Positions 30,235 through 64,000 of a DNA stretch of 64,000 nt are shown piece by piece (position 1 is the first letter of the stretch; each line of letters begins with the position of its first letter). A program made the position numbers and the translations under genes. Source of the DNA: Burkholderiales bacterium (GTDB taxonomy: Bacteria; Pseudomonadota; Gammaproteobacteria; Burkholderiales; SG8-41); contig JAIEPF010000019.1 of the NCBI GenBank assembly GCA_019749945.1, forward strand, positions 5,747 through 69,746, given 5' to 3'. Under the pieces are notes generated by a model that saw only the letters and a program-made list of their open reading frames with translations, was not told the origin of the DNA and ran no database searches.

Positions 30235-30236
30235 CG

Positions 30237-50664: not shown

Positions 50665-50712
50665 TTCGCTTTTCCATCCTCACTCCTCAATCCTCAATCC
50701 TCACTCCTCACT
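50665..50712. repeat. heptad-like array TCACTCC/TCAATCC (single arm) between convergent genes
   Basis: atcctcactcctcaatcctcaatcctcactcctcac. No complementary arm found upstream. Confidence 0.55.
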
Positions 50713-51919
50713 AGCAGTTACCCCCCGCCGCAACCCCCGAAGCCCAGGCCCACTGGAAGTTGTAGCCCCCCAGCCAGCCCGTCACATCGACCACCTCGCC
50801 GATGAAATAAAGCCCCGGCACGCTGCGCGCCTCCAGCGTCTGCTGTGACAGCGCATCGGTGTCCACGCCGCCCAGCGTGACCTCGGCCTTGGCGTAACCC
50901 AGTGTACCCGAGGGCTGGATCGGCCAGCCCTTCAACGTCTGCGCGATGGTGGCGAGCGTTGCGTTCGACAGTTGCGCCAGTGGCTGGGTCCAGCCGTGGA
51001 GTTCGGCAAAGCTGATCGCAAAGCGCCGCGGCAGATGCTCCGCCAGCAGCGCGCCCAGCGCCTGCTGATCCCGGCGATGTTCATTGAGCCACGCGCCCGC
51101 ATCCAGATCGGGCAGCAGATCCATCGCCACCGGCCCGCGTGCACCACCCTGCTGCCAGTACGAAGACACCTGCAATATCGAAGGCCCCGACAGACCGCGA
51201 TGGGTGATCAGTGCCGCCTCGCGAAACGCCGGATAGTCCGCGCCGCGCGGCACTTCGACACAGGACATCACCGCATCGAACGACGAACCGGACAGGGCAC
51301 CGAACTGCGCCAGCCACTCCGGCGGCAGGGCCAGCGGCACCAGCGCGGGTTTGGGCGGTACGATGTTCAAGCCGAATTGTTCGGCAAGACGGTAACCAAA
51401 GGGAGTCGCGCCAATTTTCGGAATCGACAGCCCGCCGGTGGCCACCACCAGCGCATGGCTGCGGTAAGTACCCTGCGTGGTTGCCACTGCAAACCCCGGC
51501 GTATCGCCTGCGATACGCGTCACCTGCGCCACCGTCACCGGCATCGCCCACTGCACACCCGCGGCATCACATTCCGCTTTCAGCATGGCGATGATCTGCT
51601 GCGCGCTGTCATCGCAAAACAGCTGGCCGAGGTTGCGCTCGTGATAGCTGATGTTGTGGCGCTCGACCAGCGCAATAAAATCGCGCGGCGTATACCGCGC
51701 CAGGGCGGAGCGGCAGAAATGCGGATTGCGCGACAGGAAATTGCGCGGCCCGACGTCGCGATTGGTGAAATTGCAGCGACCGCCGCCGGAGATGCGGATT
51801 TTTTCAGCGAGGGTTGTGGCGTGATCGACTAGCAATACGCGCCGCCCGCGCTGCCCGGCCGTGGCGGCGCACATCATGCCGGCGGCGCCGGCACCCAGAA
51901 CGATGACATCAAAATCCAT
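50711..51919 (-). CDS. HI0933/YhiN-family NAD(P)/FAD-dependent oxidoreductase
   Basis: FDVIVLGAGAAGMMCA, ISGGGRCNFTN, GEVVDVTGWLGGYNFQWAW. Confidence 0.85.
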   Translation of the reverse strand: MDFDVIVLGAGAAGMMCAATAGQRGRRVLLVDHATTLAEKIRISGGGRCNFTNRDVGPRNFLSRNPHFCRSALARYTPRDFIALVERHNISYHERNLGQLFCDDSAQQIIAMLKAECDAAGVQWAMPVTVAQVTRIAGDTPGFAVATTQGTYRSHALVVATGGLSIPKIGATPFGYRLAEQFGLNIVPPKPALVPLALPPEWLAQFGALSGSSFDAVMSCVEVPRGADYPAFREAALITHRGLSGPSILQVSSYWQQGGARGPVAMDLLPDLDAGAWLNEHRRDQQALGALLAEHLPRRFAISFAELHGWTQPLAQLSNATLATIAQTLKGWPIQPSGTLGYAKAEVTLGGVDTDALSQQTLEARSVPGLYFIGEVVDVTGWLGGYNFQWAWASGVAAGGNC

Positions 51920-52136
51920 GTGCGGCCTGCGGCTGAGGGGAGCGCATCATACCGCGCCGTGTCGGTCCGGCAAGTTTTGCCCGCACCCTGAGCGGGTGGC
52001 TCCATTGATGTGTCAACACGAACAATTGTTGCAATAATTTCAATTTACTCAAGAGTTTGCGGGCCGGATAATGGCATGCAAATCGCGGGCACAGCCTCAT
52101 CACAAAAGCAGCCGCCGCAAACCCGGAGGAGTTTTG

Positions 52137-53102
52137 ATGAACATCACACGCACGCTGCGGCCCGCACTGATGGCCGCCCTGCTCATCGTGCCGCCCGCCG
52201 CAACCGCCGCGGCTTACCCGGAGCGCCCGGTGCGCATCGTGGTGCCGGTTTCGGCCGGCGGTGGTGTCGACAGTCTGGCGCGGCTGATCGGCCAGCACTT
52301 CAATGCGGTGTGGGGCCAGCCCTTTATTGTCGACAACCGGCCCGGCGCCGGCGGCAGCCTGGGTGCGGAAATCGCCGCGCGCGCAGCCCCCGACGGCTAC
52401 ACGCTGATGGTGAGCAGCAGCAGTTACATCACCAATGCCGCGATCCGCAGCGTGCGTTATGACCCGATCCGCGATTTCCAGCCGATCACCAAACTCACCA
52501 CCAATCCGTACATCATCGTGGTCACGCCCTCGCTGCCGGTGAAATCCGTCAGTGACCTCATCGCGCTGGCCAAGGCCAAACCCGACACGGTGACCTACGC
52601 CTCGTCGGGCACCGGCGGCATCCTGCACATGGGTGCGGAACTGCTCACCGCCCTCACCCATACCAAAATGACCCATGTGCCGTACAAGGGTGTGGCCGAT
52701 GGTTATCCCGCGGTGATCTCCGGCCAGGTCAACTGGATGCTGGGCAGCCCGATCTCCGCGCAGCCGTTGATCAAAGCCGGCCGCATGCGCGGCATCGCCG
52801 TGACCACCGAGAAACGCTTAAAGGCATTACCTGATCTGCCGACCATCGCCGAAACCGTGCCCGGTTATGAAGTCAGTGCCTGGTTCGGCCTGTTTGCGCC
52901 GGCGAAACTCCCGGCCCCTATCGTCGAGCAGCTGTACAAGGAGGCGGCCAAGGCGGTCACCGAGCCGAAGGTGCTGGCGCGCATGGATGCCGAAGGCACC
53001 GAGATTGTCGCCAACCCGCCGCAGGAATTCACGCAGCAGGCGAAAAACGAATTCGACAAATGGCGCGGACTGGTCAAAAAGACCGGACTGAAACTGGAAT
53101 AA
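52137..53102 (+). CDS. Bug/TctC-family substrate-binding protein
   Basis: GGAGGA RBS. Signal peptide, then AYPERPVRIVVPVSAGGGVD. Confidence 0.9.
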   Translation: MNITRTLRPALMAALLIVPPAATAAAYPERPVRIVVPVSAGGGVDSLARLIGQHFNAVWGQPFIVDNRPGAGGSLGAEIAARAAPDGYTLMVSSSSYITNAAIRSVRYDPIRDFQPITKLTTNPYIIVVTPSLPVKSVSDLIALAKAKPDTVTYASSGTGGILHMGAELLTALTHTKMTHVPYKGVADGYPAVISGQVNWMLGSPISAQPLIKAGRMRGIAVTTEKRLKALPDLPTIAETVPGYEVSAWFGLFAPAKLPAPIVEQLYKEAAKAVTEPKVLARMDAEGTEIVANPPQEFTQQAKNEFDKWRGLVKKTGLKLE

Positions 53103-53107
53103 TCACC

Positions 53108-54070
53108 ATGAACAAAACCATCGCCCTGCTCTGCACACTGCTGCTCGCCGCAACGGCAGTCCACGCGCAGACCTTTCCAAGCAAACCCATCCGCTTCATC
53201 GTGCCGTCCTCTGCCGGCGGCGGCAACGATTACCTGGCGCGCCTCTTTGGCGCCAAGATCACCGAGAACTGGGGCCAGCAGGTGCTGGTGGATCTGCGCC
53301 CGGGTGCGGCCGGCATCCTCGGCTCCGAGATCGTCGCCAAGGCGCCGCCCGACGGCCACACCATCCTGATCGTCGCCACCGGTTACGGGTTGAACCCCAG
53401 CCTCTACGCCAAGCTGCCCTACGACACCATCGAGGATTTCGCGCGCGTGAACCTGCTCGCGTTTTCGCCCAATGTGCTGGTGGTGCATCCTTCGCTGCCG
53501 GTGAAATCGGTCAAGGAACTGATCGCGCTCGCCAAGTCGCGCCCCGGCGAACTCAACTACGCGTCCTCCGGCGCCGGCACCGGCGGCCACCTGTCGATCG
53601 AGCTGATGAAGTACATGGCGAAGATCAACATGGTGCATATCCCGTACAAGGGCGCGGGCGACGCCACCATGGCCGTGGTCAGCGGCCAGGTGCACATGCT
53701 GATGACGGCGCCGGGTGCCGCGATTCCATTCATCAAGGCCGGCCGCCTGCGGCCGCTGGCGGTGGGCTCGGCGAAACGCGTCAAGGCGCTGCCCGAGGTG
53801 CCGACCATGGCCGAGGCTGCGCTGCCGGGCTACGAAGTTGACGGCTTCTACGGCATTCTCGCGCCGGGCAAAACACCGCGCACCATCGTCGACAGGCTGT
53901 ATGCCGAATTCGACCGCATCCTGAAGCTGCCGGATGTGATCCAGCAACTGGAAGCTCAGGGCTTTGAACCGGTCAGTTATACGCCGGAGAAATTCACCGA
54001 ATACGTCAAAAAAGAAATGCAGAAATGGCCGCCGGTGTTCAAGGCGGCGGGGATCAAGGTTAATAATTAA
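53108..54070 (+). CDS. Bug/TctC-family substrate-binding protein (tandem with the previous gene)
   Basis: Signal peptide, then QTFPSKPIRFIVPSSAGGGND. Confidence 0.9.
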   Translation: MNKTIALLCTLLLAATAVHAQTFPSKPIRFIVPSSAGGGNDYLARLFGAKITENWGQQVLVDLRPGAAGILGSEIVAKAPPDGHTILIVATGYGLNPSLYAKLPYDTIEDFARVNLLAFSPNVLVVHPSLPVKSVKELIALAKSRPGELNYASSGAGTGGHLSIELMKYMAKINMVHIPYKGAGDATMAVVSGQVHMLMTAPGAAIPFIKAGRLRPLAVGSAKRVKALPEVPTMAEAALPGYEVDGFYGILAPGKTPRTIVDRLYAEFDRILKLPDVIQQLEAQGFEPVSYTPEKFTEYVKKEMQKWPPVFKAAGIKVNN

Positions 54071-54099
54071 GAGCGCGTAACAAAATCGAGGGTAAGCGT

Positions 54100-54222
54100 A
54101 GTTAACCACCCCCATCCCCGCCTTCCCCCTGAAGGGGAAGGAGTATCCATGGAATTCCCTCCCCTTCAGGGGGACAAGGGCACACTTGGAGCGAAGCAGG
54201 GTTAGGGTGGGGGTGGTATGAG
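54100..54222. repeat. REP-like composite palindrome (outer ccacccccatcccc / ggggtgggggtgg; inner ccttcccc-ctgaa-ggggaagg)
   Basis: Nested inverted repeats read directly from the sequence. Confidence 0.65.
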
Positions 54223-54290
54223 CACAAGTCAATCAACGTCATCAAAAGCAATCGTAATAAACTGGCAGCACATTTTCTGAAGGAGCAGTC

Positions 54291-54836
54291 ATGGCCAAGA
54301 TATTCCTGGTGGTACCGGATGCGCCGGTTGAAGCGGCCGCAGAACTCAAATCCAGTCGCACGCTCGGCAACGCCGGCATCCGCCTCGGCGTGCTCGACAA
54401 CAGCAAGGGCAATGCCGACCATCTGCTGAACCTGATCATCGAAGGCGTCAAAAAAGATTTCAAGGTCGATTCGGTGGTGATGACGCGCAAACCCTTTTCC
54501 AGCAAACCCGCGACGGATGCCATCCTCGACCAGCTGGCGAAGGAGGCAGACCTCGTCGTCAGTGCCATGGCCGATTGAGGGTCGTGCACGTCGTGGAGTG
54601 TCCACGACATGGCGCAGTTGACCAAACGCGGCCTCCTGGCCGCCGTGGTGGTTTCGGATTCATTCATGAAACTGGGCAAGGCGCAGGCCAAGGTGTTCGG
54701 CGTGCCTGATCTGCCTTTGCTCGAGATCAAACATCCGCTGGGCGGGCTCAACATGGACCAGGTGCGTGAACGCGCGGCCGTGGCCATGCCGCAGTTGCTG
54801 AAGTTCATCAATACGGCCAAAGAGAAACAAGCATGA
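54291..54836 (+). CDS. candidate selenoprotein with U-G-S-C motif (in-frame UGA at 54576-54578 read as Sec)
   Basis: ORFs 54291-54578 and 54609-54836 share one frame and are separated only by TGA. AAGGAG RBS. SECIS-like hairpin 11 nt after the UGA. Joined sequence ...VVSAMAD-U-GSCTSWSVHDMAQLTKRG... Confidence 0.7.
54590..54608 (+). promoter_or_regulatory. SECIS-like stem-loop
   Basis: gtcgtgga-gtg-tccacgac, a perfect 8-bp stem starting 11 nt after the UGA. Loop G and U fall at +23/+24 counted from the U of UGA. Confidence 0.6.
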
Positions 54837-55948
54837 GCGCCATCACCACCCTGCTGCAAAAACCCGGTGCACTGATCGAATGCGACGACGACCCGGAAGC
54901 AGTGTTCGACCTGCTCTGCGCCAAAGGCTGGAGCGACGGCTTCCCCGTGATCCCGCCGACACCCGAGCGCGTCGAACGCATGCTGGCTTATTGCGATCGC
55001 GACTTCGACGAACCCGTGATCAAGATCCCGCCGCGTTTTGGCGCGGCCACACCAATCCGCATCGCCGCCAATGCAGTGATGGCCGGCTGCAAACCGGAAT
55101 ATTTTCCGCTGGTGCTGCTGGCGCTGGAGACGCTTGCCGAAGATCAATACAACCTCTACGGCACGCAGGCGACGACACACCCCTGCACACCGCTGCTGAT
55201 TTTCAACGGCCCGGTGGCGCGCGAAGTCGGCATCAATGCCGGCCACAACGTGATGGGCAATTATTTCCGCGCCAATGCCACCATCGGCCGCGCGGTGCGC
55301 CTGGCACTGGTCAACATCGGCGCCGCCATCCCCGGCACCGGCGACATGGCCACGGCGGGCACGCCGGCGAAATGGAGCTTCTGCGTCGCCGAGAACGAAG
55401 CCGCCAGCCCCTGGGAACCGCTGCACGTGGAAATGGGCTACGCCAAAGACACCACCACCGTCACCGTGGTTGCCGCCGAAAGCCCACACAACGTCAACGA
55501 CCACGAAAGCCTGACGCCGGAAGGCATCCTGCGCATGGTCTCGGGCACCATGGCCACGACGGGATCGAACAACGCCTATTACGCGGGACAGCCGGTGCTC
55601 GCCTTCGGCCCCGAACACGCCGCCACGGTCGCAAGCCGCGGCATGACCAAGGCCCAGGTCAAACAATGGCTGTACGACGACGCCGTGATCCCGCTGTCGC
55701 GATTCTCCGAAGAAACCATCGCACGGCGCTTCCGCCGCAGAAACGCCGAACAATACGCCAACGCCCCGCTCGACACACCCGTGCACATGTGGCAGAAACC
55801 CGATGACCTGATCATCATCGTCGCGGGCGGCGCCGGCAAACACTCGCAATACATACCGACCTTCGGCATCACGCGTGCCGCGACCCGGCCGCTGAAACGC
55901 GCGGATGGCGAACTGGTGAAATCAATCGAGGAATTGAAGCGCGGATAG
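54833..55948 (+). CDS. conserved hypothetical protein (371 aa), ATGA-coupled to the UGA-containing gene
   Basis: Start ATG overlaps the upstream TGA stop (gcATGAgc). Clear coding composition. No family recognised. Confidence 0.75.
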   Translation: MSAITTLLQKPGALIECDDDPEAVFDLLCAKGWSDGFPVIPPTPERVERMLAYCDRDFDEPVIKIPPRFGAATPIRIAANAVMAGCKPEYFPLVLLALETLAEDQYNLYGTQATTHPCTPLLIFNGPVAREVGINAGHNVMGNYFRANATIGRAVRLALVNIGAAIPGTGDMATAGTPAKWSFCVAENEAASPWEPLHVEMGYAKDTTTVTVVAAESPHNVNDHESLTPEGILRMVSGTMATTGSNNAYYAGQPVLAFGPEHAATVASRGMTKAQVKQWLYDDAVIPLSRFSEETIARRFRRRNAEQYANAPLDTPVHMWQKPDDLIIIVAGGAGKHSQYIPTFGITRAATRPLKRADGELVKSIEELKRG

Positions 55949-56007
55949 CGCGGAAGGCGCGATCCACTACGTTCCCCCCGTCCTGCAAAAATCTGCACTG
56001 CTACCTC

Positions 56008-56126
56008 GTAGGGCGGGTGATTACCCGCCGGTCCGCCGTTGTCATGCACGACGCAGTCGTGCCCTGCTGATTTCTTGCCAACAAACATCCGGCGGATAAC
56101 GCCGCAAGGCGGCTCATCCGCCCTAC
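56008..56126. repeat. REP-like element bounded by gtagggcgg ... ccgccctac
   Basis: Outer 9-bp inverted repeat plus internal hairpins (gcacgacgcagtcgtgc; ggcggataacgccgcaaggcggctcatccgcc). Confidence 0.6.
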
Positions 56127-56146
56127 GCACTCCACGCATCAACAAT

Positions 56147-56216
56147 AAGGGCGGCGCATCACTGTGATGCACCGCCCTCAGATTATTTATAAGTATTTGA
56201 TTTTATTGTATTTTTA
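56147..56216 (+). repeat. GC hairpin (gggcggcgcatcac-t-gtgatgcaccgccc) followed by AT-rich dispersed element copy E (IHF core at 56190-56202, minus orientation)
   Basis: Same hairpin-plus-AT-rich arrangement as copies A and F. Confidence 0.6.
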
Positions 56217-56246
56217 GACAAATACTCTATACCCGGATCCAGCGAC

Positions 56247-56366
56247 TTACTTCCTGATCGGATCCATCGGCTTGGGCTTGAGAAACCCGCCCGCCACCGG
56301 CACGGCTTTTTTGTCCTTCTTGGGTTTTTTCTGTTCCTTGTTGCTGCGTTGCTGACCTTTGGCCAT
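56247..56366 (-). CDS. small basic protein (39 aa)
   Basis: MAKGQQRSNKEQKKPKKDKKAVPVAGGFLKPKPMDPIRK, preceded by AAGGAGA 6 nt upstream. Not in the ORF track (too short). Confidence 0.5.
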   Translation of the reverse strand: MAKGQQRSNKEQKKPKKDKKAVPVAGGFLKPKPMDPIRK

Positions 56367-56438
56367 GGTGTTCTCCTTGTGGTTACTGCATGTTAAGGCA
56401 ATTCACAAAGCGAAAGGAGGAAAACGCAGAAATGGGTT

Positions 56439-56870
56439 TTACAGCGGTTTGAGTTTTTTCAGCGCAGCGGCCACCGCTTTGCTTGCCGCAAGCAAATCCG
56501 CAAGCAGGCGATCATCAATATTCAAATCGCCCTCGTATTCGCCAAGGTTTCTCACCTCGTGGCATTTAGCCAGTACGCGCCAGACCTCAGCGCCCAAACC
56601 CAAGGTATGCGGTAGTACCTGAAACACGATGTAACGATTGGCAGCACGATAACCATGCCACCGGAGTGCGGCCAGGCACAAGGCATGCGCCGCGTTGTAA
56701 GCGAGATCGAAGCGCCCTTCCAAAGAAAGCCCTGTATTGGCAGCGTCATCCAGACGCGCCAGCCCCGAACGCTGCAAGCCTGAAAATTCCTTCGCATCCG
56801 GCGGCTCCAGCCGCAAGGGTTTGCCCGAACCGCTGAGCAACTCAAGCGGCGAGGCCAACCAATTCTCCAA
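56439..56870 (-). CDS. HEPN-domain protein (putative toxin of a HEPN/MNT pair)
   Basis: Rx4-6H motif RVLAKCH followed by EVRN..EYEG. Overlaps the upstream MNT gene. Confidence 0.6.
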   Translation of the reverse strand: MENWLASPLELLSGSGKPLRLEPPDAKEFSGLQRSGLARLDDAANTGLSLEGRFDLAYNAAHALCLAALRWHGYRAANRYIVFQVLPHTLGLGAEVWRVLAKCHEVRNLGEYEGDLNIDDRLLADLLAASKAVAAALKKLKPL

Positions 56871-57504
56871 TCACCGGCAACCGGGGTTGCGACCACACGC
56901 GCCGGACAAAAGCATTGTCCGCGCGCACCCGCTTGTCGAGCTCCTTGCGGGTATACACCGTCGGATTCACCTTGCGCCCGAGCCGGCCCTCCGCTTCCTG
57001 CAGCGCCGCATACAGATCAGCGTGAGACAAGGCATCACTCACCACCATCAGGTCAATATCACTCGCGGCAGTGTCTTCACCCTTGGCCACTGAGCCATAC
57101 ACAAACGCACTCTCAAAGCGCGCTGCCAATGGCTGCAAGGCCGCACGCAGCACATCCACCAGCCCCGAGGTCTTCAATACCAGCCCGCGCAGTTCGGCAT
57201 AAACCGCCGACGCGGCATTGGCCTGATAGTGTTTCTGGTTGCCCACGCGAGTGGCCGTCACCAAGCCGGACGCCTCGAGTCGTGCAAGCTCGCGCTGCAC
57301 CGCGCCGGTACCCGACTCTGCGAGAACGATGATCTCGTTGGCATAAAAACTCCGCCCCGGATTGCCAAACAGCACGGCGAGCACCCGTTGCTGCACCTTG
57401 GTGAACAAGGCATCGGCCACGCCCACAGCGGCTGGGGCCTTGGTCTTGAGTGTTTTCTTAATTCCCATATTGGGTATGATAAACCCCAATATGGGTATCT
57501 TCAA
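56842..57504 (-). CDS. winged-HTH plus minimal nucleotidyltransferase (MNT) protein
   Basis: ArsR-like wHTH (SFYANEIIVLAESGTGAVQRELARLEASGLV), then GSVAKGEDTAASDIDLMVV. Start uncertain (TTG 57504 or ATG 57468). Confidence 0.7.
   Translation of the reverse strand: MKIPILGFIIPNMGIKKTLKTKAPAAVGVADALFTKVQQRVLAVLFGNPGRSFYANEIIVLAESGTGAVQRELARLEASGLVTATRVGNQKHYQANAASAVYAELRGLVLKTSGLVDVLRAALQPLAARFESAFVYGSVAKGEDTAASDIDLMVVSDALSHADLYAALQEAEGRLGRKVNPTVYTRKELDKRVRADNAFVRRVWSQPRLPVIGELVGLAA
57464..57495. promoter_or_regulatory. inverted repeat CCCATATTGGG-N10-CCCAATATGGG at the 5' end of the wHTH-MNT gene (candidate operator)
   Basis: Perfect 11-bp arms read from the sequence. Confidence 0.45.
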
Positions 57505-57540
57505 GTCGCCTGGCGAACCGGGCGCACATTCTGACTGGTT

Positions 57541-57573
57541 ATAAATTTATAAATTAAATCAATAGCTTATAAA
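57541..57573 (-). repeat. AT-rich dispersed element, copy F (IHF core AATCAATAGCTTA at 57557-57569)
   Basis: ataaatttataaattaaatcaatagcttataaa. Confidence 0.65.
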
Positions 57574-57600
57574 CTTGAGGTCGCAATTGGCGACCTCAAG
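57574..57600 (-). terminator. rho-independent terminator of the Bug gene 57615-58580
   Basis: cttgaggtcgc-aattg-gcgacctcaag, an 11-bp stem. On the minus strand it is followed by TTTATAAG... Confidence 0.7.
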
Positions 57601-57614
57601 TCAGACCCTGCCGT

Positions 57615-58580
57615 TCAATCGACCGTAATCCCGGTCGCCTTCACCAGCTTGGTGAAGCGCTCGACCTCGCTCTTGATGTGCGCGGCGAACTGCTCCGGCG
57701 TGCCGCCCACCGCATCGAAACCCATCTTTTTCAAGGCGCCACTCACATCAGGCAACGCCAGGGCTTTCGCGGATTCGGCATTGACGCGGCTGACGATGGC
57801 CGCAGGTGTACCCGCGGGTGCCAGCAGGCCGAACCACGACGTCACCTCAAAACCCGGATAACCGGCCTCGGTCATCGTCGGCAGTTCGGGCATCAGCGGC
57901 GCGCGTTTCGGCGTCGTGACCGCGAGCACCCGCGCCTTGCCCGATTTGGCGTGCGGCTCGATGCCGACCACGGTAAAGAACATCACCGACACCTCGCCGC
58001 TCAAGAGCCCGGTCAGCGCGGGGGTGGTGCCCTTGTACGGCACATGCACCAGCTTGATGCCCGCCATCATGTTCAGCAGCTCGCCGCTCAGGTGATGGGT
58101 GCTGCCGTTGCCGGCGGAACCGTAGTTGAGATCACCCGGCCGCTTCTTGGCCAACGCGACCAGTTCCTTCACGTTCTTCACCGGCAGCGACGGGTGCGCC
58201 GTCAGCACATAGGGTGTGGAGGCGATCAGGATGATCGGCGAGAAATCCTTGATCGCATCGTAGGGCAGCTTTTTATACACCGCGGGGTTGGAGCCGTGCG
58301 TGGAATTGTTGGCCATGAACAGCGTATAGCCGTCGGCCGGCGAGCGCGCCGCCGCTTCAGTGCCGACCGCACCGCCGGCGCCCGGCCGCGCCTCGATCAC
58401 AAACTGCTGGCCCATCTGCCCAGCGAGCTTGGCAGTCAGCACCCGGCTCACGTTGTCCGTTGCGCTGCCCGGCGCCTGCGCAATCAGGATGCGGATCAGT
58501 TTTGTGGGATAAGTCTGAGCCACAGCGGGTTGCGCCATCAGTGCGGCGATGCAGGTGAACATCGGGAATTGAATACGCAT
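57615..58580 (-). CDS. Bug/TctC-family substrate-binding protein
   Basis: AGGAGGAG RBS. Signal peptide, then QTYPTKLIRILIAQAPGSATD. Confidence 0.9.
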   Translation of the reverse strand: MRIQFPMFTCIAALMAQPAVAQTYPTKLIRILIAQAPGSATDNVSRVLTAKLAGQMGQQFVIEARPGAGGAVGTEAAARSPADGYTLFMANNSTHGSNPAVYKKLPYDAIKDFSPIILIASTPYVLTAHPSLPVKNVKELVALAKKRPGDLNYGSAGNGSTHHLSGELLNMMAGIKLVHVPYKGTTPALTGLLSGEVSVMFFTVVGIEPHAKSGKARVLAVTTPKRAPLMPELPTMTEAGYPGFEVTSWFGLLAPAGTPAAIVSRVNAESAKALALPDVSGALKKMGFDAVGGTPEQFAAHIKSEVERFTKLVKATGITVD

Positions 58581-58614
58581 TGCTCCTCCTTTTTTATAGA
58601 AAATTTGCGCCATG

Positions 58615-59328
58615 TTATCCGGAATCCGCGGCAAGCGCCGCGATTGCCTCAATGCGAGCACGAACGCGACGAACCCGATCCCCGTGAATCTCGTCATAGG
58701 TCACCAGGCCCGGCAGCGTATTGGAAAAATCCGCATGCTGCGCAATCTCGCCGAAACGAGCGGACAGGTAATGCATCAGATCAGCTGCGGCAGCAGCCAC
58801 CTCAGCTTCGATACCGGGGCGACCATCCAGCACATGGATGATGTCCTCGAAATCGTGACTCGATAACAGATCGCCCCGGCCGCGCGTTGCAAACGCTTCG
58901 AGCTTGGTTGCCAGAAAAGCGGGCGCCGGGATCAGGCGGATCAGCCGACCACTGGGCAGCGCGACGCGCAAAGCACCCGCGATGGCATGCGGATACCAGC
59001 GATTCGAAAACCCGAGAATTTTTTCCTCGCTCGGCATCAGGTCAACACACAGATCCCGCAAGCGCCAGCGGCAGATCGGCGCATCCTGCGAAACATCGCG
59101 TGTGAAGCCCCGCTGCTCGAACCGCTTTTCCAGCGCGTAATACTCGGCCAGCGCAGCTACCTCGGCCACCACATCCACATCAAAGGTCACGCGCGGCGGC
59201 GCAGCAGCGAGCGACGTACACAACAGCCCTGCAGCACAGCCACCGACCAGCACCACCTCATCACACAAATCGCCCAGCGCCTGCGCGACCACCTCAACCG
59301 ACTGAACATTGGGATCGAGCGGATTCAA
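58615..59328 (-). CDS. nucleotidyltransferase-fold protein, AbiEii-like (putative type IV TA toxin)
   Basis: LVGGCAAGLL...RVTFDVDVV resembles the GGxAL...RxSxDxD NTase signature. 4-nt overlap with the upstream wHTH gene. Confidence 0.5.
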   Translation of the reverse strand: MNPLDPNVQSVEVVAQALGDLCDEVVLVGGCAAGLLCTSLAAAPPRVTFDVDVVAEVAALAEYYALEKRFEQRGFTRDVSQDAPICRWRLRDLCVDLMPSEEKILGFSNRWYPHAIAGALRVALPSGRLIRLIPAPAFLATKLEAFATRGRGDLLSSHDFEDIIHVLDGRPGIEAEVAAAAADLMHYLSARFGEIAQHADFSNTLPGLVTYDEIHGDRVRRVRARIEAIAALAADSG

Positions 59329-59876
59329 AACCGTTGCCCGAACAATTCTTCAGCCAGGCTGCGCTCGCGCGCGTTGCCCATGCGCAAGGCATCAAACAAC
59401 GCGAGATTTTCGTACAAGGCAGGATTGCGCAACGCGGCAGCCGGCGCGCTCGGATACAAGGGCACCAGGGCAAGGCCACGCGCATTGCCTTCGGCATGCG
59501 GCCACACCGGCGGCGGATCGGAGGACGGCGCGATCGATGCGTTAAGCGGCGCAGCCGCATACGCCGTTGGCACGCCACCCACCATCCCGCCACGCGCGGC
59601 CGGAAATGCATAACGCGCGCCATGAAACAGAAACTCCTTGAACGCCGGCTTGATCAGGCCTGGCTTGCCATCGACGAACGACAGCAGTCGCGCCAACTCG
59701 GCGCGCCTTAACGCGCCATGCACTTCAGAGATCGACACCCCCGCAAATGCCGCAAGCTCGGGATAGGTCACCGGCTCATCCCGACGCGTGAGCAAGGCCA
59801 GCAGCAGATACAAATCCTGCGGCTTCAGAGTGGGCTGACGATTGACCGGGCGTCGCATGGGTAATCCCTGCAGCAT
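59325..59876 (-). CDS. winged-HTH protein, AbiEi-like putative antitoxin/regulator
   Basis: DLYLLLALLTRRDEPVTYPELAAFAGVSISEVHGALRRAELARLL wHTH, with an uncharacterised C-terminal domain. Confidence 0.5.
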   Translation of the reverse strand: MLQGLPMRRPVNRQPTLKPQDLYLLLALLTRRDEPVTYPELAAFAGVSISEVHGALRRAELARLLSFVDGKPGLIKPAFKEFLFHGARYAFPAARGGMVGGVPTAYAAAPLNASIAPSSDPPPVWPHAEGNARGLALVPLYPSAPAAALRNPALYENLALFDALRMGNARERSLAEELFGQRF

Positions 59877-59987
59877 TTTCGCAATTCGCGAAAAGAGAAA
59901 TTATCATTAAATACAATGATCTGCAATGATATATGGCCGCCTGCCTCGCCTTCCGCAAACCCGCCAACAGCCATACTGAGAGCGGAG

Positions 59988-60020
59988 TAATTTATTCAAT
60001 AAAAACAATTACTTATAAAA
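59988..60020 (-). repeat. AT-rich dispersed element, copy G (core AAACAATTACTTA, one mismatch to the IHF consensus)
   Basis: taatttattcaataaaaacaattacttataaaa. Abuts the truncated hipA remnant. Confidence 0.6.
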
Positions 60021-60023
60021 CGG

Positions 60024-60377
60024 CACTTCGCGCGCAACCAGGACGACCATGTCAAGAACATCGCCTTCCTGATGGACCCGCAGGGCCGCTGGTCACTGGC
60101 GCCGGCATTCGACATGACCTACAGCTACAACCCCGCCGGCCTGTGGACCGCCACGCACCAGATGACCATGAACGGCTAACGCGACGGATTTACGCTGGCG
60201 GATTTTGAAGCCTGCGCAAAATCAGCGCAGATGAAACGCGGGCGTGCCGCCGTGATCCTTGATGAAGTGCGAGCTGCCGTGGAGACCTGGGCGGCATGTG
60301 CAGAGGCTGCCGGTGTGGATGAAGTGCGGCGGGAACAGATCCGCGGGGCGCATCGGATGGCGTTTGCAGAGAAGTAA
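60024..60377 (+). pseudogene. hipA: hipA (type II TA Ser/Thr kinase toxin) C-terminal remnant with internal TAA
   Basis: Frame reads ...NQDDHVKNIAFLMDPQGRWSLAPAFDMTYSYNP...QMTMNG*RDGFTLADF...EVRAAVETW... The DDHxKN catalytic loop and LAPAYD-like motif are present. N-terminal two-thirds absent; stop at 60177-60179. Confidence 0.7.
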
Positions 60378-60516
60378 GTCGGCGGTTCTTGCCATTGGTT
60401 AAGCGACCGAATCAGGCCCTTTCACGATATTGAAGAAATTAAGTTGCCGAGTGAAAAACTAACCGACCCTCAACTAAACATATCGAAAACGGCATTTCAT
60501 TGACACCGAGATCTTT

Positions 60517-61236
60517 TCAACGCCTGCGCCTGAGATGTGACTCGTATTCTGAGACTAGTTTACTAATGTCATTAACCAGCCCCTCGAATTCGCGCACCTG
60601 CTGCGTCGCACCGCTAAGGTGTGTCTGAATAAAATCCCCGCGAGAAAACGGCATAACATATGCCGATCCATCGGGAACACTTTTAAGAAGCCACCAAAGA
60701 CTAGGCCCTGCTCCAAAATCGAAAAAAACTGGCGCGTTACTACTCCCCCAATCTCTTAGGATTGCGCATTCGCCGGGGAACGTTCTCCGAATCTGTGAAT
60801 TGGAACCAACGCCGATGCTGCGATTCAACGCGCTCTTAAATTGCTGCACATCTCGCTTACGCCTTGTTCCATTCACTACCCAAGCCAGCTTCGGATAAAA
60901 AGTATCGCGTGACCGGCGTTCTTCAGGATTGATATACGAATACTGAAACTCAATGACCCAACCCTGATCAGTCTTTACATCCGCGATATGCTTTTCTCCG
61001 TTCTCGGCCTTATGAACAATCTCTTGCCAGCCTTCCGGAAAATGCCTTTTCCAATCGCGGTGCCATTCGGTTTCATTTTCCCACCAAGGATCACAAGTGC
61101 GATGCCCTTTGTGAGCCCAGTGCCAAATCTTTATCTCGCCACACTTTGCAACCGTAGCCTGATCGCAAACCGGACATTTTCCTGAAAGTTTCGGCTGCGC
61201 CTCTTGGCGTTGCCCATTAATTAGTGAAAATTTCAT
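60517..61236 (-). CDS. CoiA-like nuclease-family protein (competence protein CoiA-like)
   Basis: CPVC...HWAH, ETEWHRDWK, GEKHIADVKT..GWVIEFQYSYI...R: zinc-finger-like N-terminus plus a PD-(D/E)xK-like core. Visibly lower GC than its neighbours. Confidence 0.65.
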   Translation of the reverse strand: MKFSLINGQRQEAQPKLSGKCPVCDQATVAKCGEIKIWHWAHKGHRTCDPWWENETEWHRDWKRHFPEGWQEIVHKAENGEKHIADVKTDQGWVIEFQYSYINPEERRSRDTFYPKLAWVVNGTRRKRDVQQFKSALNRSIGVGSNSQIRRTFPGECAILRDWGSSNAPVFFDFGAGPSLWWLLKSVPDGSAYVMPFSRGDFIQTHLSGATQQVREFEGLVNDISKLVSEYESHLRRRR

Positions 61237-61287
61237 GCTCGAATCTCGCCACTACCCTTCTACATTTAGCCCCAATCCCCCCGCGAA

Positions 61288-61785
61288 CTACAGCCGATCC
61301 AGCTTGAAAGCTGTGCGAACCTCACGCAGCCACGCTTCGGTGAAATGATGTCGAAGATTGGGGCGCGCTCCAGCGGCTCGGGCAATGGCATCCAAGGAAA
61401 CCAGACGACCCTCAAATCCCATGGCTAGTGCCGCATTAACCGCAGCACGATCAGCGCAGCTCACCAACCAGACACCGGGCCGACCAAGCAAGTGGGCCAG
61501 AAGATCACGTTCGCCCGCGTCCAGCGCATCCGCGTTTTCAAGATTGAGTGAGAGCGCAGCACGTTCGACATCCGACACAGTATTTCTGTCGGCCAGACCT
61601 TGCCTCAAAATCCCCGGATCAACAGCAACGTATCCGGGGCGCAGCAGATCCCCGGTCAACGTTTCTTCGTAACATTTTTCGACTGTCGCCACCGAAAAAT
61701 GGACGGTCACGGCATTCCAGCAATTGGTGCGGTAAGCCTCGATGATCACGCTCGTGTCCATCAAAATGACTTGTCCGCGCTGCAT
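61288..61785 (-). CDS. PIN-like domain protein
   Basis: ILMDTSVIIEA N-terminal Asp and LDAGERDLLAHL...SCADRAAVNAALAMG, resembling PIN/DUF3368-type motifs. 9 nt downstream of the XRE-ImmA gene. Confidence 0.55.
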   Translation of the reverse strand: MQRGQVILMDTSVIIEAYRTNCWNAVTVHFSVATVEKCYEETLTGDLLRPGYVAVDPGILRQGLADRNTVSDVERAALSLNLENADALDAGERDLLAHLLGRPGVWLVSCADRAAVNAALAMGFEGRLVSLDAIARAAGARPNLRHHFTEAWLREVRTAFKLDRL

Positions 61786-61794
61786 GCTGTTGGC

Positions 61795-62910
61795 TCACAG
61801 ATCAAACGGAACCGGTAGCTGATAGTCCCGGAACAACTGCGCCAGATCATCAAGCGTCAATTCGAGCAGCACGGCGGCACGTCGCACCGACAATTGGCCC
61901 TTTGCAAGCGCCATGTGCAGACGCCGCACAAACGCCTCGCTGAACAACCGCGGCGTCTGTTGATCTGCTTTGGGCCTGCCATTAGCAGTCAGCTTGGCAT
62001 CATTAATGGAATCCAGTTCAGCCTTGGTAAGCCAGCCCAGATTGATCAGCCGCCATTTCAATGCCATCGCGCTCACGAGAAATTCTGCTGCCGTCCTATT
62101 CAACCAGGCGTGGATATCTCCGCCGTTACGAGCCTGCCACAGTGGCGCAAGTGCGCGTTCCGGCATCAGTAGTGCGGCGGCAAAATTGTCGGCCAGTTGC
62201 TCTATGCGTTTGTAACGGCCTTTGCCACGACGATCGCCGTCGCTCAACTCCCTGTGCTCAGGCGGCATCTGCTCCCAGGTCAGTACATGGAATATCTCGT
62301 GCGCGAGATCGTAGTGGCGGCGACCTTCCGACTCGTTGCGATTGATCAGGATGGTACTCAGGCCGGGCACCTGACAGGCAGCGCCCGAAATACCTTTTGG
62401 CGCATTGACGTACAGGATCAGCGCGCCAAGGCTGGCCTCTGCGGCGCGCTCCAGTGCCAAAGCGGGCTTATCGCCCAGTTTCCATTCGAGACCGACAGCC
62501 TCGCCCGCTGTGACAGCCTCCTCAAAGGTGCTTTGTTCATTCAGCGGCAGATGGCGTTGCAAGACAGCGGTTTTGATGCCCTGGATATCACCGAGGCGGC
62601 GGTACGTGGCAATCCACCGACCAGCGCGCGCCTCAAATGTTTTGAGTAAATCATCACTTGCGCCCTTGTCTGCACGCCAGGAAAACCGGCCCTCTCCATC
62701 CAGACGGAACCCGTCAGTAAAGTAATCCAGGTCCACGCCAAGCACCTGGATCGCCCGCAGCAATTCCTCGGCGCTGATCTTGCGCTGCCCGGCCTCGATC
62801 GCCGCCAGTGTCTGGCGATCTTTGAAACCGAGTTTTTCCGATAGTTGAGCCTGAGTAAGATCGAGCTTCTCACGCGCGGCTTTCAGACGCCGGCTGATCA
62901 GATCATTCAT
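61795..62910 (-). CDS. XRE-family HTH fused to ImmA/IrrE-type zinc metallopeptidase
   Basis: RLKAAREKLDLTQAQLSEKLGF HTH and HEIFHVL (HExxH). ATG 62910 preceded by GGGGGAA. Confidence 0.8.
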   Translation of the reverse strand: MNDLISRRLKAAREKLDLTQAQLSEKLGFKDRQTLAAIEAGQRKISAEELLRAIQVLGVDLDYFTDGFRLDGEGRFSWRADKGASDDLLKTFEARAGRWIATYRRLGDIQGIKTAVLQRHLPLNEQSTFEEAVTAGEAVGLEWKLGDKPALALERAAEASLGALILYVNAPKGISGAACQVPGLSTILINRNESEGRRHYDLAHEIFHVLTWEQMPPEHRELSDGDRRGKGRYKRIEQLADNFAAALLMPERALAPLWQARNGGDIHAWLNRTAAEFLVSAMALKWRLINLGWLTKAELDSINDAKLTANGRPKADQQTPRLFSEAFVRRLHMALAKGQLSVRRAAVLLELTLDDLAQLFRDYQLPVPFDL

Positions 62911-62979
62911 GTGGTTCCCCCGCAGTTGCTGCGCCACACGCCGCGAATGCGGCCTTGTTAAGCGGAATAGAGACTAACA

Positions 62980-62999
62980 TTGCAAATTGCATTTTGCAA
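62980..62999. promoter_or_regulatory. near-perfect 20-bp palindrome TTGCAAATTGCATTTTGCAA upstream of the XRE-ImmA gene (candidate operator)
   Basis: ttgcaaa-t-tgca-t-tttgcaa, ~70 nt upstream of the ATG. Confidence 0.45.
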
Positions 63000-63041
63000 G
63001 AATTACTTGCTTTTGAAATTAATACTTCGTAGCCTTTTCTC

Positions 63042-63073
63042 ATAAAATATTGTTTTAAATCAATATCTTAATT
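63042..63073 (-). repeat. AT-rich dispersed element, copy H (IHF core AATCAATATCTTA at 63058-63070)
   Basis: ataaaatattgttttaaatcaatatcttaatt. Confidence 0.6.
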
Positions 63074-63213
63074 GGGTTGACCAGTCTCGAATTGAGGCCA
63101 TGGCCAGCCTGAGCAAGACTTTTCAGAACTCGAAGTCACAGCGGGATAGATTTCCCGCATCACCGGGCATGTCCACACAAAAGGAATCGACTCCGGTTCA
63201 GATAATTCCCCGC

Positions 63214-64000
63214 CTACCGCCCCAACAATCCCAATATCCCGGAAACAATGCCTTTACTGGCCCCTGGCTTGGCCGCCTGACTGACCTGCTGAATCCGGCT
63301 GACAAAGGGCGACTCCTTGCTGGATGTCAGTATCAATTGGTCCATCGCCCGCGTCATCGCCACATACAGCAGCTTCGCTTCCTCGTGAATGCCGTAATCC
63401 CGGTGCGGCATGTAGCCGAGCCCGGGAATCGCCACCACCGGAAACTCCAGGCCCTTGCTGCTGTGCATCGTGATCACCTTGACGCTGTCCTCTGCAGGAT
63501 CAAAGCGCTTCTTGCCACCGGGGCCGCCCAGCCATTGCACGGGGATCTTGGCCATCTTGAGTTGCTTGGCCATTTCCTCCCCAATAAAAGCCGTGCGATA
63601 AACAATCGCCATATCCCGCCATGGCCGACCTGAATGATTGTGCCGGCGGAAGTGCTCCGCCAGATAAGCGCCTTCCTTGGCCAGCGTCGGAAATTGCCGC
63701 AGTTCCGGCGCTAAGCCGCGGCGGCCGGCGCTTTCGGGCTGGATCAACGGCACACCATCCTCCTCAGCCTGCTCGGGGCGGATGTATTCCCTGGCGAATT
63801 CGTAAGCGGTGCCGAGGATTTCGGCGGTGTTGCGGTAATTCAGCCGCAGAATGGTCGTGCGCCCCTGCGCCTGGACACCCAGGCTGGAAAAACTGAATTT
63901 GCGCCGGGTCTTGCCGCCATAGATCGACTGCGCATCGTCATAGAGCAGCAACAACGAGTTGGTCTCGGGATCCACCATCTGCGTCACCAGCTTGAGCCAC
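63214..64000 (-). CDS. UvrD/Rep-type superfamily 1 helicase, C-terminal part (gene continues beyond the window)
   Basis: LLLYDDAQSIYG, VITMHSSKGLEFPVVAIPGLG, LLYVAMTRAMDQLILT (helicase motifs V/VI region). Confidence 0.75.
   Translation of the reverse strand, partial: WLKLVTQMVDPETNSLLLLYDDAQSIYGGKTRRKFSFSSLGVQAQGRTTILRLNYRNTAEILGTAYEFAREYIRPEQAEEDGVPLIQPESAGRRGLAPELRQFPTLAKEGAYLAEHFRRHNHSGRPWRDMAIVYRTAFIGEEMAKQLKMAKIPVQWLGGPGGKKRFDPAEDSVKVITMHSSKGLEFPVVAIPGLGYMPHRDYGIHEEAKLLYVAMTRAMDQLILTSSKESPFVSRIQQVSQAAKPGASKGIVSGILGLLGR

Follow-up and report, generated by a model that had tools for sequence, protein, structure and literature searches.

The stretch analysed here, called the window, comprises 64,000 nt of DNA from an uncultured drinking-water Burkholderiales bacterium. 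Its right end is a real accessory island, in which small toxin-antitoxin and candidate anti-phage cassettes are placed around a probably resident transporter gene, and which is fairly ordinary for its type. All open reading frames listed in an earlier note exist at the places given, and their families were mostly confirmed by profiles or folds. The left edge of the island is marked by a G+C-rich hairpin (56146..56180, 16-bp stem, 9 GC among 16 pairs), which probably terminates the last core operon. Next to it lies copy E of an AT-rich element (56177..56231, minus strand), with a core, AAATCAAATACTTATAAA, that agrees with the consensus for IHF, WATCAANNNNTTR. Sequence around this copy is itself polymorphic: X6, X7 and X8 have 125 different letters in place of the 79 nt at 56163-56241, and the flanks on either side are 100% identical. 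Copies F (57528..57578), G (59985..60022) and H (63034..63075) are on the plus strand; a terminator-like hairpin follows F, behind the Bug gene described below. The four copies were earlier taken to separate the modules. They are present as described, with 4 matches of the core motif against 0.02 expected, but they do not stand between every module, and about 11 copies occur in the 64 kb. The element is a genome-wide intergenic motif and was rejected as an island-specific cassette border. A lysine-rich ORF of 39 aa (56247..56366, minus strand) exists as listed, but searches of Pfam, PADLOC, NCBIfam and PHROGs gave no match, and whether it is a gene is unproven.

The first cassette consists of two minus-strand genes. 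The protein encoded by 56439..56870 belongs to PDC-M05B (PADLOC, 6.6e-61) and has a HEPN fold; the top Foldseek match of its AF2 model (pLDDT 87) is PDB 2hsb (TM 0.65/0.73), followed by HepT-MntA complexes. Its homologues form at least 8000 clusters, with R98-x5-H104 and R107/N108 conserved. The gene overlaps by 29 nt with that of a wHTH plus minimal nucleotidyltransferase protein (56842..57504; PDC-M05A, PADLOC 2e-80; NTP_transf_2 2.9e-7; Polbeta 8.9e-7), which carries the motif GSVAKGEDTAASDIDLMV and whose wHTH matches are weak (MarR_2 0.003, MntA 7.7e-7). This is a pair of HepT/MntA type, with the HEPN protein as putative toxin and the wHTH-MNT protein as putative antitoxin/regulator. Judging from the family, the nucleotidyltransferase would hold the HEPN RNase inactive and repress the operon. 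PDC-M05 has been described as an NTase and HEPN pair resembling a toxin-antitoxin module, with an antiviral role as yet unconfirmed (PMC12988326).

The transporter gene encodes a TctC/Bug periplasmic binding protein (57615..58580, minus strand; Pfam TctC 1.7e-74). The ORF is listed as 57615-58697(-), and the start is most likely 58580, where AAGGAGG precedes the ATG. The gene is core-like in GC3 (0.823), has no PADLOC match and is probably resident, not island cargo. On its other side lies an AbiE-like pair, also on the minus strand, in which PDC-M21B (58615..59328, PADLOC 1.6e-64), an AbiEii/AbiGii-like nucleotidyltransferase, would be the toxin and PDC-M21A (59325..59858, PADLOC 2.7e-34) the wHTH antitoxin/regulator. 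The two genes overlap by 4 nt. PDC-M21A, listed as 59325-59876(-), most likely starts at 59858, and the protein called for it in L086 has 177 aa; the wHTH matches of PDC-M21A are weak (MarR_2 0.02, HTH_IclR 0.034). The earlier assignment to an AbiEii-like nucleotidyltransferase with a wHTH partner stands by the PADLOC pair, but not by Pfam, where the AbiEii match of 0.0095 is under the cut-off. The nucleotidyltransferase has the GG...DVDVV motif, homologues of it are found on 113 plasmids with the annotation AbiEii/AbiGii family, and the whole pair is also present on an Aquabacterium plasmid. Upstream of the pair is a 5'-truncated hipA remnant (60030..60377, plus strand; HipA_C 131-213 of 213, 4.1e-16). 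It retains about the last 115 codons, has an in-frame TAA at 60177-60179, and is dead.

The remaining genes are on the minus strand. A solitary CoiA-family gene (60517..61236, CoiA_N 1.2e-7, CoiA_nuc only 0.078) has a GC of 0.489, a GC3 of 0.467 and its own terminator-like site at 60508-60490. In its product, a Zn-finger-like CoiA_N domain at the N-terminus is joined to what is probably a PD-(D/E)xK-type nuclease. Then comes a PIN-fold protein of 165 aa (61288..61785, AF2 pLDDT 93.5), whose top Foldseek match is VapC4 (5h4h, probability 1.0). It belongs to an unannotated family with 454 representatives at E<=1e-10, without match in Pfam, PADLOC, NCBIfam or PHROGs, and no RmrT model matched it. 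D10, E16, E41, E92 and D112 are invariant and D89 is conserved in at least 90%; we regard it as a putative RNase toxin/effector. Nine nt upstream of it, 61795..62910 encodes an XRE-HTH domain, an M78 (ImmA/IrrE) metallopeptidase and a C-terminal domain (HTH_3 4.9e-15, Peptidase_M78 6.1e-12); a protein identical to this product of 371 aa is on record. This XRE-M78 protein matches RmrA (2.8e-22) and capP (2.1e-17) in PADLOC and phrog_2439 (5.3e-35) in PHROGs, at least 95% of 57 homologues share its HExxH and E237, and it is putatively an RmrA-like antitoxin/repressor. An operator-like palindrome, TTGCAAA-N6-TTTGCAA, lies at 62980..62999, 70-89 nt upstream of its ATG. The pattern TTGCA-N6-14-TGCAA is found upstream of 16/57 homologues against 1.06% of control windows, a 27-fold enrichment, which suggests that a protein may bind there.

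At the edge of the window, 63214..64000 encodes the C-terminal 261 codons of a helicase of 634 aa (UvrD_C 8.9e-25; PADLOC C3a187 1.7e-67), as the earlier note had recognized. How far does the island extend beyond this point? Contigs L001-L003 are 100% identical to the window over 60070-64000 and hold the complete NERD plus UvrD (SF1) gene (C3a187, 1.1e-192), which two HNH_2 genes precede; their gene order is helicase, two HNH_2 and a Zn-dehydrogenase with core-like GC3 (0.785). The helicase and the two HNH nucleases may form one module of the island, which continues for about 3.1 kb past the window end. All in all, PADLOC places the modules in candidate or defence families, of which PDC-M05, PDC-M21 and C3a187 are candidate defence families only.

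We consider with good confidence that this is a composite island of about 10.9 kb, which starts at 56180, ends about 3.1 kb to the right of the window and was made by several independent cassette insertions. Its accessory nature is supported by comparison, as the island genes are present in 0/80 related-genome loci around the conserved left-flank gene. The GC3 of the island modules (about 0.47-0.70) is below that of core genes (0.75-0.82), and the AT-rich stretches pointed out earlier are real (GC 0.48-0.50 and 0.447 against 0.62 in the window). No tRNA was found within the window, no integrase or transposase in the window or the contig extension to the right, and no target-site duplications or recombination sites for the island insertions, in line with the earlier picture of a mosaic without mobility genes.

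Could the whole region still have been delivered at once by a mobile element, with the integrase outside the sequence seen? The common strand of all cargo genes except the hipA remnant and the GC of the island (0.572 against 0.628 in the remaining window) would fit. However, GC3 varies from 0.47 to 0.76 among the modules, and the 3.5-kb extension ends in the core-like dehydrogenase gene without any integrase. A treatment of the island as one block also fails at the Bug gene, which looks resident in the middle of it (GC3 0.82). Moreover, two sub-segments vary individually in presence and absence between related populations, the opposite of a syntenic and conserved region. The first is 1242 nt long (56370..57611) and holds the HEPN-MNT cassette and copy F; contigs of X6 (depth 11.8) and X7 (depth 13) join 56369 to 57612, and the 39-aa ORF stretch is kept there at 80% identity or more. 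Since the Bug part of these contigs is only about 83% identical to the window and Bug paralogues are many, their orthology is uncertain and they could come from a paralogous locus. The second, of 3227 nt (59979..63205), runs from copy G through hipA', CoiA, PIN and XRE-M78 to copy H. In X6 and X7, metagenomes of another study, contigs join 59978 to 63206, and depth counted from 80% likeness upwards is 0 over 60335-62686 in X5, X6, X7 and X12, although 48000-60300 is covered in the same four runs from three other studies. In the source study depth is uniform at about 22, and L086/L087, independent contigs from other samples, contain the segment contiguous and 100% identical. Note that this indel evidence comes from Logan contigs of 209-895 nt, 80-95% identical to the window, which are better at showing presence than absence; the joints may reflect insertion or deletion alike, and the junctions are approximate. 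The island is not a single insertion, and delivery of the whole by one element is most improbable. Small self-contained cassettes would have been inserted independently into intergenic DNA to the left and to the right of the Bug gene, without any single integrase-borne element.

Within the second segment, the earlier note singled out XRE-ImmA, PIN-like and CoiA-like genes as a trio. These are co-directional and close (gaps 9 and 51 nt) and lie together in the 3227-nt segment. Nevertheless, XRE-M78 adjoins PIN in 76/76 informative loci with upstream room, and the gap is 6-20 nt in 55/56 full-length loci measured, whereas CoiA-like homologues occur in 0/80 loci carrying the pair. On 44 plasmids such homologues are solitary with varied, unrelated neighbours, and they are on no phage. 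GC3 also differs (CoiA 0.47, the two genes of the pair 0.57 and 0.64). In L093 the homology begins at 63013, skips 63014-63274 and reaches precisely to the stop codon of PIN, where a different module follows; copy H is outside the cassette so conserved. A joining of the same cassette to another module also speaks against delivery in one piece. One three-gene defence system is therefore already contradicted by the comparative data, and we give it hardly any credence. XRE-M78 and PIN form, on sequence grounds, a conserved two-gene module under purifying selection (dN/dS against L093 0.06 and 0.088).

What might this module do? Elsewhere it is often inside ARMADA-type helicase/methylase systems, with YprA/DruE-like helicase, DrmMI-like methylase, SIR2 and AAA-OLD as neighbours; in the window it is an orphan without ARMADA genes, and resembles RosmerTA. 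RmrA proteins are ImmA-protease antitoxins whose partner toxins are diverse, PIN-like ones included (PMC10440598). By this likeness, the XRE domain would use a TTGCA-N10-TGCAA operator to repress the operon, and the XRE-M78 protein would neutralise the PIN RNase; both effects might be lifted by a cue from infection or DNA damage that acts via the M78 protease. Another explanation is that the pair is no toxin-antitoxin system but a sensor/regulator of CapH/CapP or ImmR/ImmA type switching on neighbouring defence genes. The capP match lies in the M78 part, the pair is directly upstream of a YprA/DruE-like helicase-nuclease in 30/75 loci, often overlapping it, and downstream of a DrmMI-like methylase, inside the operon, in 22 loci; pairs that stand alone have an operator-like palindrome. 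But a pure regulator needs no PIN nuclease, and all catalytic acids of PIN are conserved. Strong purifying selection acts in the window and L093 without any ARMADA genes, and CoiA never adjoins the pair elsewhere. We hold this explanation to be rather unlikely. Its targets here would be the downstream CoiA-like gene or NERD-UvrD/HNH, and elsewhere the ARMADA helicase.

There is a further question, whether the putative toxin-antitoxin modules act in phage defence at all. They might be selfish addiction cassettes and decaying debris, kept as their loss is costly; we lean against this, yet it has real weight. HEPN-MNT, AbiE-like and PIN modules are classical toxin-antitoxin architectures, PDC-M05 is without a confirmed antiviral role, the hipA fragment is dead, and XRE-M78/PIN survives where the neighbouring large helicase was deleted (L102, L106, L107), as an addictive module would. 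On the other hand, all modules fall in families found through defence-island association, the neighbours of the PIN pair in other genomes are defence genes, and RosmerTA systems whose antitoxin is of the same type protect against phages (PMC10440598). Addiction and defence, moreover, are not mutually exclusive.

Does the right end of the window, from 56180 to about 3.1 kb past its edge, form a real genomic island? The earlier note had read 56180-64000 as a mosaic of toxin-antitoxin (TA) and defence modules of patchy composition, with no tRNA and no mobility gene. All the genes it named are present at their positions in the ORF list, and the patchiness is seen both in the composition profile and in the per-gene values. 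The GC content is 0.621 for the window and 0.572 for 56180-64000, with 0.48-0.50 over 60350-61250 and 0.447 over 62900-63200. The GC3 is 0.75-0.82 in the flanking core genes, 0.785 in the dehydrogenase gene on the right side and 0.823 in the Bug gene in the middle of the island. For the cassettes, the values are 0.62 for HEPN, 0.70 for MNT, 0.65 for M21B, 0.70 for M21A, 0.47 for the CoiA-like gene, 0.57 for PIN, 0.64 for XRE-M78, 0.59 for the HNH genes and 0.74-0.76 for the helicase. Judged gene by gene from GC3, the Bug gene looks resident, while the cassettes look foreign and of several origins. As for contiguity, the contig depth in the source study is about 22 and flat over core and island. 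Logan contigs from the drinking-water metagenome series match the window at 100% identity over 60070-64000 and then continue for another 3.5 kb. Since two contigs from further samples (L086 and L087) span 58243-62031 at 100% identity, the arrangement is not an assembly chimera.

How did the cassettes arrive? By ARAGORN the whole window is free of tRNA and tmRNA genes. In agreement with the earlier note, no ORF for an integrase or transposase is seen in 56180-64000, nor is there one in the Logan contig L001. Long direct repeats flanking the region were not found, and neither repeats nor recombinase genes turned up that could explain cassette insertion. A single integrase-borne island was rejected on the lack of an integrase, of tRNA/tmRNA and of flanking long direct repeats, together with the independent variation of the cassettes. 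An integron array was also considered and seems unlikely; no integrase is seen, and the AT-rich element that recurs in the island has, judged by reading, no RYYYAAC/GTTRRRY inverted core sites. The Rfam scan of 55900-64000 gives no RNA family, and the promoter and terminator scan gives results at chance level. The closest genomes among species representatives are MAGs of uncultured Burkholderiales/Betaproteobacteria, with a left-flank protein 76-82% identical. The GTDB relatives recovered through the left-flank gene are distant (no more than 82% at the amino acid level) and share nothing beyond the three-gene UGSC cluster, so the junctions are not definable from genomes. No island gene occurs in the 80 loci around the left-flank gene in other genomes, and the Zn-dependent dehydrogenase on the right flank shows no synteny in these GTDB relatives. 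Identical protein records exist for the ATG-start form of XRE-M78 and for M21B; there are none for the GTG-start form, the core 371-aa protein or the Bug protein.

Metagenomes give a view of the island in environmental populations. In runs of three other studies, related strains span 48000-60300 at about 96-99% identity; over 60335-62686 their depth is 0 even when the likeness limit is 80%. It should be noted that depth from contigs is better evidence of presence than of absence. In contigs of two biofilm metagenomes, 59978 is joined to 63206. The missing 3227 nt hold AT copy G, the hipA remnant, CoiA, PIN, XRE-M78 and AT copy H, and the stop codon of the helicase then adjoins the upstream region of M21A. 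The same two runs have a joint of 56369 to 57612, by which 1242 nt comprising HEPN-MNT and AT copy F are missing and the 39-aa ORF adjoins a Bug gene. Both joints rest on short contigs from diverged strains, and the second case is less secure because the Bug copy there has only about 83% identity and might be one of the paralogues that Bug genes have. A further metagenome contig, L093, has the 3' end of the helicase (92% identity in nucleotides), XRE-M78 (95% in amino acids) and PIN (92% in amino acids) in order, and departs from the window exactly at the PIN stop codon, where first a terminator, then an AT-rich element and finally an M05A-like wHTH gene follow. This order with its new continuation indicates that cassettes are shuffled as units. 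The reading as a TA/defence mosaic island holds, with cassettes that vary independently of one another. The island was put together one cassette at a time with no visible mobility gene, and the general picture of defence islands is unchanged by it. Within Bug (58058-58245) and within the hipA remnant (60070-60191), the Logan contigs of the source study break repeatedly. Full-length hipA-like sequence occurs inside long contigs of the two biofilm runs (X6 and X7), and the breaks fit paralogous copies elsewhere in the community.

Is the AT-rich element a border of the modules, as the earlier note had it? The element does exist in the island, at 56177-56231 (inverted), 57528-57578, 59985-60022 and 63034-63075, and its core AAATCAATANCTTATAAA has 4 matches at no more than 3 mismatches against 0.02 expected. 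It consists of an A/T run followed by AAAWCAATWNCTTA, and in four copies the match to the IHF consensus WATCAANNNNTTR is exact. There are about 11 copies in the window, four of them in the 7.8 kb of the island and others at 1484-1529, 16535-16576, 30220-30320, 35348-35384 and 41878-41911. This number of copies marks it as a genome-wide intergenic motif and not as an island-specific border. It is also variable: the region of copy E (56163-56241) is swapped for another 125 nt in three runs with identical flanks, and copy H is missing from L093. Close to copy E, at 56085-56127, lies a 42-nt G+C-rich palindromic REP-like element, CATCCGGCGGATAACGCCGCAAGGCGGCTCATCCGCCCTACG, which is found in many unrelated biofilm-metagenome contigs and has a depth of 15-39 against about 5 in its flanks.

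Which genes of the island belong together? The XRE-ImmA, PIN-like and CoiA-like genes had been put forward as a trio and as the best candidates for a defence system. Patterns from the PIN family alone were used to fetch 80 metagenome loci. A homologue of XRE-M78 (41-95% identity) lies directly upstream of PIN in 76 of the 80, the other 4 having no upstream sequence, and the gap between the two genes is 6-20 nt in 55 of 56 measured full-length loci. The CoiA-like gene is found in 0 of the 80, and the three-gene system was rejected. Thus XRE-M78 (61795-62910, minus strand) and PIN (61288-61785, minus strand) belong together, and CoiA and the hipA debris are just adjacent. Such a separation of linked from adjacent genes tells the experimenter which constructs to clone.

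The XRE-M78 protein matches HTH_3 (4.9e-15) and Peptidase_M78 (6.1e-12), the RmrA profile PDLC03949 (2.8e-22), capP over residues 162-300 (2.1e-17) and, over its full length, the phage family phrog_2439 (5.3e-35). Its H204-E205-x-x-H208 motif and E237, the third zinc ligand, are kept in at least 95% of 57 homologues. A TTGCA-N6-14-TGCAA palindrome lies upstream of XRE-M78 in 16 of 57 loci, compared with 1.06% of control windows; where the pair owns its upstream region the palindrome sits 54-140 nt before the start, and the copy in the window is at 62980-62999. The 165-aa PIN protein, p165, was recognised by its fold and family alignment, and it has no match in any library: nothing in Pfam or NCBIfam even at E<=5, and nothing in PADLOC, RmrT included, at E<=0.01. 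The structural model has a pLDDT of 93.5, and its best Foldseek matches are VapC4 (5h4h/5h4g) and the PIN proteins 1v96 and 1y82, with TM 0.6-0.69. In the alignment D10, E16, E41, E92 and D112 are invariant and D89 is kept in at least 90%. With 454 representatives out of 1.84 billion at E<=1e-10, this is a modest family, and it carries no annotation in any library searched; the source names are "hypothetical protein", save two JGI entries named "predicted nucleic acid-binding protein". Compared with L093, the window genes have dN/dS values of 0.06 (XRE-M78) and 0.088 (PIN).

The pair resembles RosmerTA (RmrT/RmrA), with which it has in common an upstream gene of RmrA architecture and, closely joined to it in a two-gene operon, a second gene for a small putative toxin. 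XRE-M78 has the HTH and the M78 zinc peptidase with HExxH that characterise RmrA. Unlike RosmerTA, p165 has a PIN fold and falls outside the RmrT models and the Pfam PIN families, and the pair is in many genomes embedded in a larger helicase/methylase system. VapBC offers a second comparison: p165 has the PIN fold with conserved acidic residues, whereas its partner is a 371-aa XRE-M78 fusion in place of an antitoxin of about 70-100 aa (RHH, AbrB, Phd or HTH). An HTH repressor and an M78 protease domain are also shared with the CBASS regulators CapH/CapP, with ImmR/ImmA and with DdrO/IrrE, where a protease-controlled repressor would be the expected logic here too; the differences are that the domains in the window are fused in one protein, and that the downstream gene is a PIN nuclease with no CBASS or mobile-element operon. 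Judged by these families, XRE-M78/PIN would work like a RosmerTA system with a putative toxin of an undescribed family. The pairing itself is not new, as NetFlax has already noted that an ImmA-protease antitoxin type (node D25) is paired with PIN-like toxins (PMC10440598). As a whole, the island is typical of defence/TA islands.

The lead of greatest interest comes from outside the window. Sequence downstream of the pair is available in 75 loci; in 30 of them the gene that follows the pair, often overlapping it, encodes a protein of about 1720 aa with DEAD, Helicase_C, MZB (DUF1998) and Vsr/MTES_1575 domains, matched by DruE profiles at 1e-143. A DrmMI/PglX-like methylase is upstream of the pair in 22 loci. 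In the one neighbourhood that is fully resolved (L180-L182) the gene order is SNF2 helicase, Eco57I-type methylase, AAA/OLD ATPase, XRE-M78, PIN, YprA helicase-nuclease and UvrD fragment, which corresponds to that of ARMADA type II (ArmA-D; YprA-family helicase systems; bioRxiv 10.1101/2025.09.15.676423). The pair has the methylase on one side and the YprA-Vsr helicase on the other, a place that in L180-L182 it shares with the AAA/OLD ATPase. Text searches of the ARMADA preprint gave no accessory pair of the XRE-M78/PIN type. ARMADA II-like operons holding the pair were recorded in L180 (1-16677), L181, L182, L097, L100, L134, L135, L144, L145, L159, L162 and L165. In six more loci the helicase of about 1720 aa is internally deleted or present as C-terminal remnants. 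It was seen in reduced form in L102, L106 and L107 (also L096, L098 and L099), either by an internal deletion joining residues 1-54 to about 1463-1720 or as C-terminal fragments. As XRE-M78 and PIN stay intact beside the reduced YprA/DruE-like helicase, the pair outlives the large gene.

Does the pair in the window then belong to such a system? In other genomes the pair has the neighbours known from ARMADA II, namely an SNF2 helicase, a PglX/DrmMI-like methylase, a YprA helicase whose C terminus is a Vsr-type nuclease, and a UvrD fragment. Near the pair in the window, unlike in ARMADA II, the YprA helicase, the methylase and the SNF2 helicase are all absent, and 56180-64000 with its 3.5-kb extension contains no YprA, BrxHII/SNF2 or PglX-like gene. 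A DruE/YprA remnant in the window was considered and rejected, as a tblastn search with the 1727-aa YprA/DruE-like protein found nothing better than E 0.21. The pair in the window is an orphan. A bolder scenario, which we regard as doubtful, sees the pair as a portable and so far undescribed sensor/effector add-on to helicase-nuclease immune systems, inside ARMADA II-like operons in about 40% of loci, outliving the deleted helicase, and here re-deployed beside NERD-UvrD and two HNH nucleases. If true, the pair would give ARMADA-type defence a new, regulated layer of abortive back-up and be more than an ordinary TA pair. In any case, the frequent ARMADA-like placement is a lead on the regulation or back-up of these newly described helicase systems.

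How might the cassettes work? From the protein families we infer that they may have the corresponding activities, act as TA modules and protect against phage. By analogy, each would be an autonomous two-component module, in which a DNA-binding or enzymatic partner silences a nuclease or NTase effector until infection or stress. An XRE-M78 HTH dimer might bind the palindrome to repress its operon, and XRE-M78 might also hold the PIN RNase inactive; a signal via the M78 protease would then lift both constraints, as in ImmA/ImmR, IrrE/DdrO and CapP/CapH. In the HEPN-MNT pair, the NTase might act on the HEPN RNase by modification or by binding, as HepT/MntA systems do.

The HEPN-MNT pair corresponds to PDC-M05, an NTase with a HEPN protein that is TA-like and has an unconfirmed antiviral role (PMC12988326). 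MNT (56842-57504) matches PDC-M05A of PADLOC (2e-80) and NTP_transf_2 (2.9e-7), with weak wHTH matches at the N terminus, and contains the minimal NTase motif GSx(n)DxD as GSVAKGEDTAASDIDLMV. HEPN (56439-56870) matches PDC-M05B of PADLOC (6.6e-61). Its AlphaFold model (pLDDT 87) has 2hsb, a HEPN structure, as the best Foldseek match, followed by HepT-MntA complexes, the list including 7bxo, 6m6u, 8xeh and 5yep; a sequence search of PDB with the protein returned nothing. An Rx4-6H motif is present as R98-x5-H104, where R98 is invariant and H104 kept in at least 90%, and R107/N108 are kept; both are candidate motifs for the catalytic role. The arrangement is that of the HepT/MntA type VII TA systems, with the NTase gene upstream of the HEPN-fold gene and overlapping it, here by 29 nt. 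Unlike HepT/MntA, the MNT of the window has an N-terminal wHTH, is 220 aa long and scores 29 bits against the cut-off of 60 for the NCBIfam MntA equivalog, and the HEPN protein matches no Pfam HEPN model or other Pfam family. The HEPN family is very large, with at least 8000 clusters. For a TA component it is unusually conserved, the best 120 of these clusters being 75-99% identical and coming from Gallionella, Nitrosomonadales, Nitrospirae, Pelomonas and others.

Next to it, beyond the Bug gene (57615-58580; TctC/Bug binding protein, 1.7e-74), are M21B (58615-59328; PDC-M21B 1.6e-64) and M21A (59325-59858; PDC-M21A 2.7e-34). The two resemble AbiE, a type IV TA and abortive infection system, in that a small putative wHTH protein is followed by an NTase in a two-gene operon. 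Unlike AbiE, there is no AbiEi profile match, and neither protein reaches the length that is typical of AbiEi/AbiEii. M21B reaches 16.3 bits with Pfam AbiEii (DUF1814, PF08843), below the gathering value of 22.5 (E 0.0095), and the wHTH matches of M21A are marginal and sub-threshold (MarR_2 0.02, HTH_IclR 0.034). Plasmid homologues of M21B are annotated as AbiEii/AbiGii family, and an Aquabacterium plasmid carries the same M21A/B pair; PDC-M21 is a candidate family only. The hipA remnant (60030-60377) covers the final 83 profile positions of HipA_C (131-213) with an in-frame TAA, and it thus differs from a HipA kinase toxin, which has full-length N- and C-terminal domains and a hipB partner.

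The CoiA-like gene (60517-61236) has the N-terminal CoiA_N domain (1.2e-7, above the cut-off) of competence protein CoiA, a Gram-positive transformation factor. It differs from it in having no competence gene context and a marginal nuclease-domain match (CoiA_nuc 0.078, 13.5 bits, below the cut-off of 20.3). No relative was found by sequence in PDB, and no homologue in phages. Homologues named CoiA family by NCBI occur on 44 Proteobacteria plasmids, where they are solitary and have Tn3 transposases, integrases, an Abi gene or T4SS genes as neighbours. At the other side of the pair, the helicase cut by the window edge is in full a NERD+UvrD protein of 634 aa (PADLOC C3a187, 1.1e-192). Beyond the window, two HNH_2 genes precede it in the same orientation, and then comes the Zn-dependent dehydrogenase gene. 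The full-length C3a187 match and further matches to GajB models liken it to the GajB-like/NERD-UvrD helicases of Gabija; unlike in Gabija, there is no GajA partner and two HNH_2 genes precede it. Accessory regions of Ralstonia megaplasmids and Nostoc plasmids contain homologues of the helicase, one of them beside a type III-B CRISPR module, and no HNH_2 gene was found beside the plasmid homologues.

One more observation concerns the core genes of the left flank. Two small "UGSC" ORFs at 54291-54836 (plus strand) are the two parts of a single gene, which an in-frame TGA at 54576-54578 divides. Read through, it gives ...SAMAD-U-GSC-TSW..., the motif that names the Pfam family UGSC, to which the N half (2.7e-13) and the C half (3.9e-15) both match. 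A SECIS-like hairpin, GTCGTGGA-GTG-TCCACGAC, lies 3' of the TGA, and related MAG loci show the same in-frame split. The product is probably a selenoprotein.
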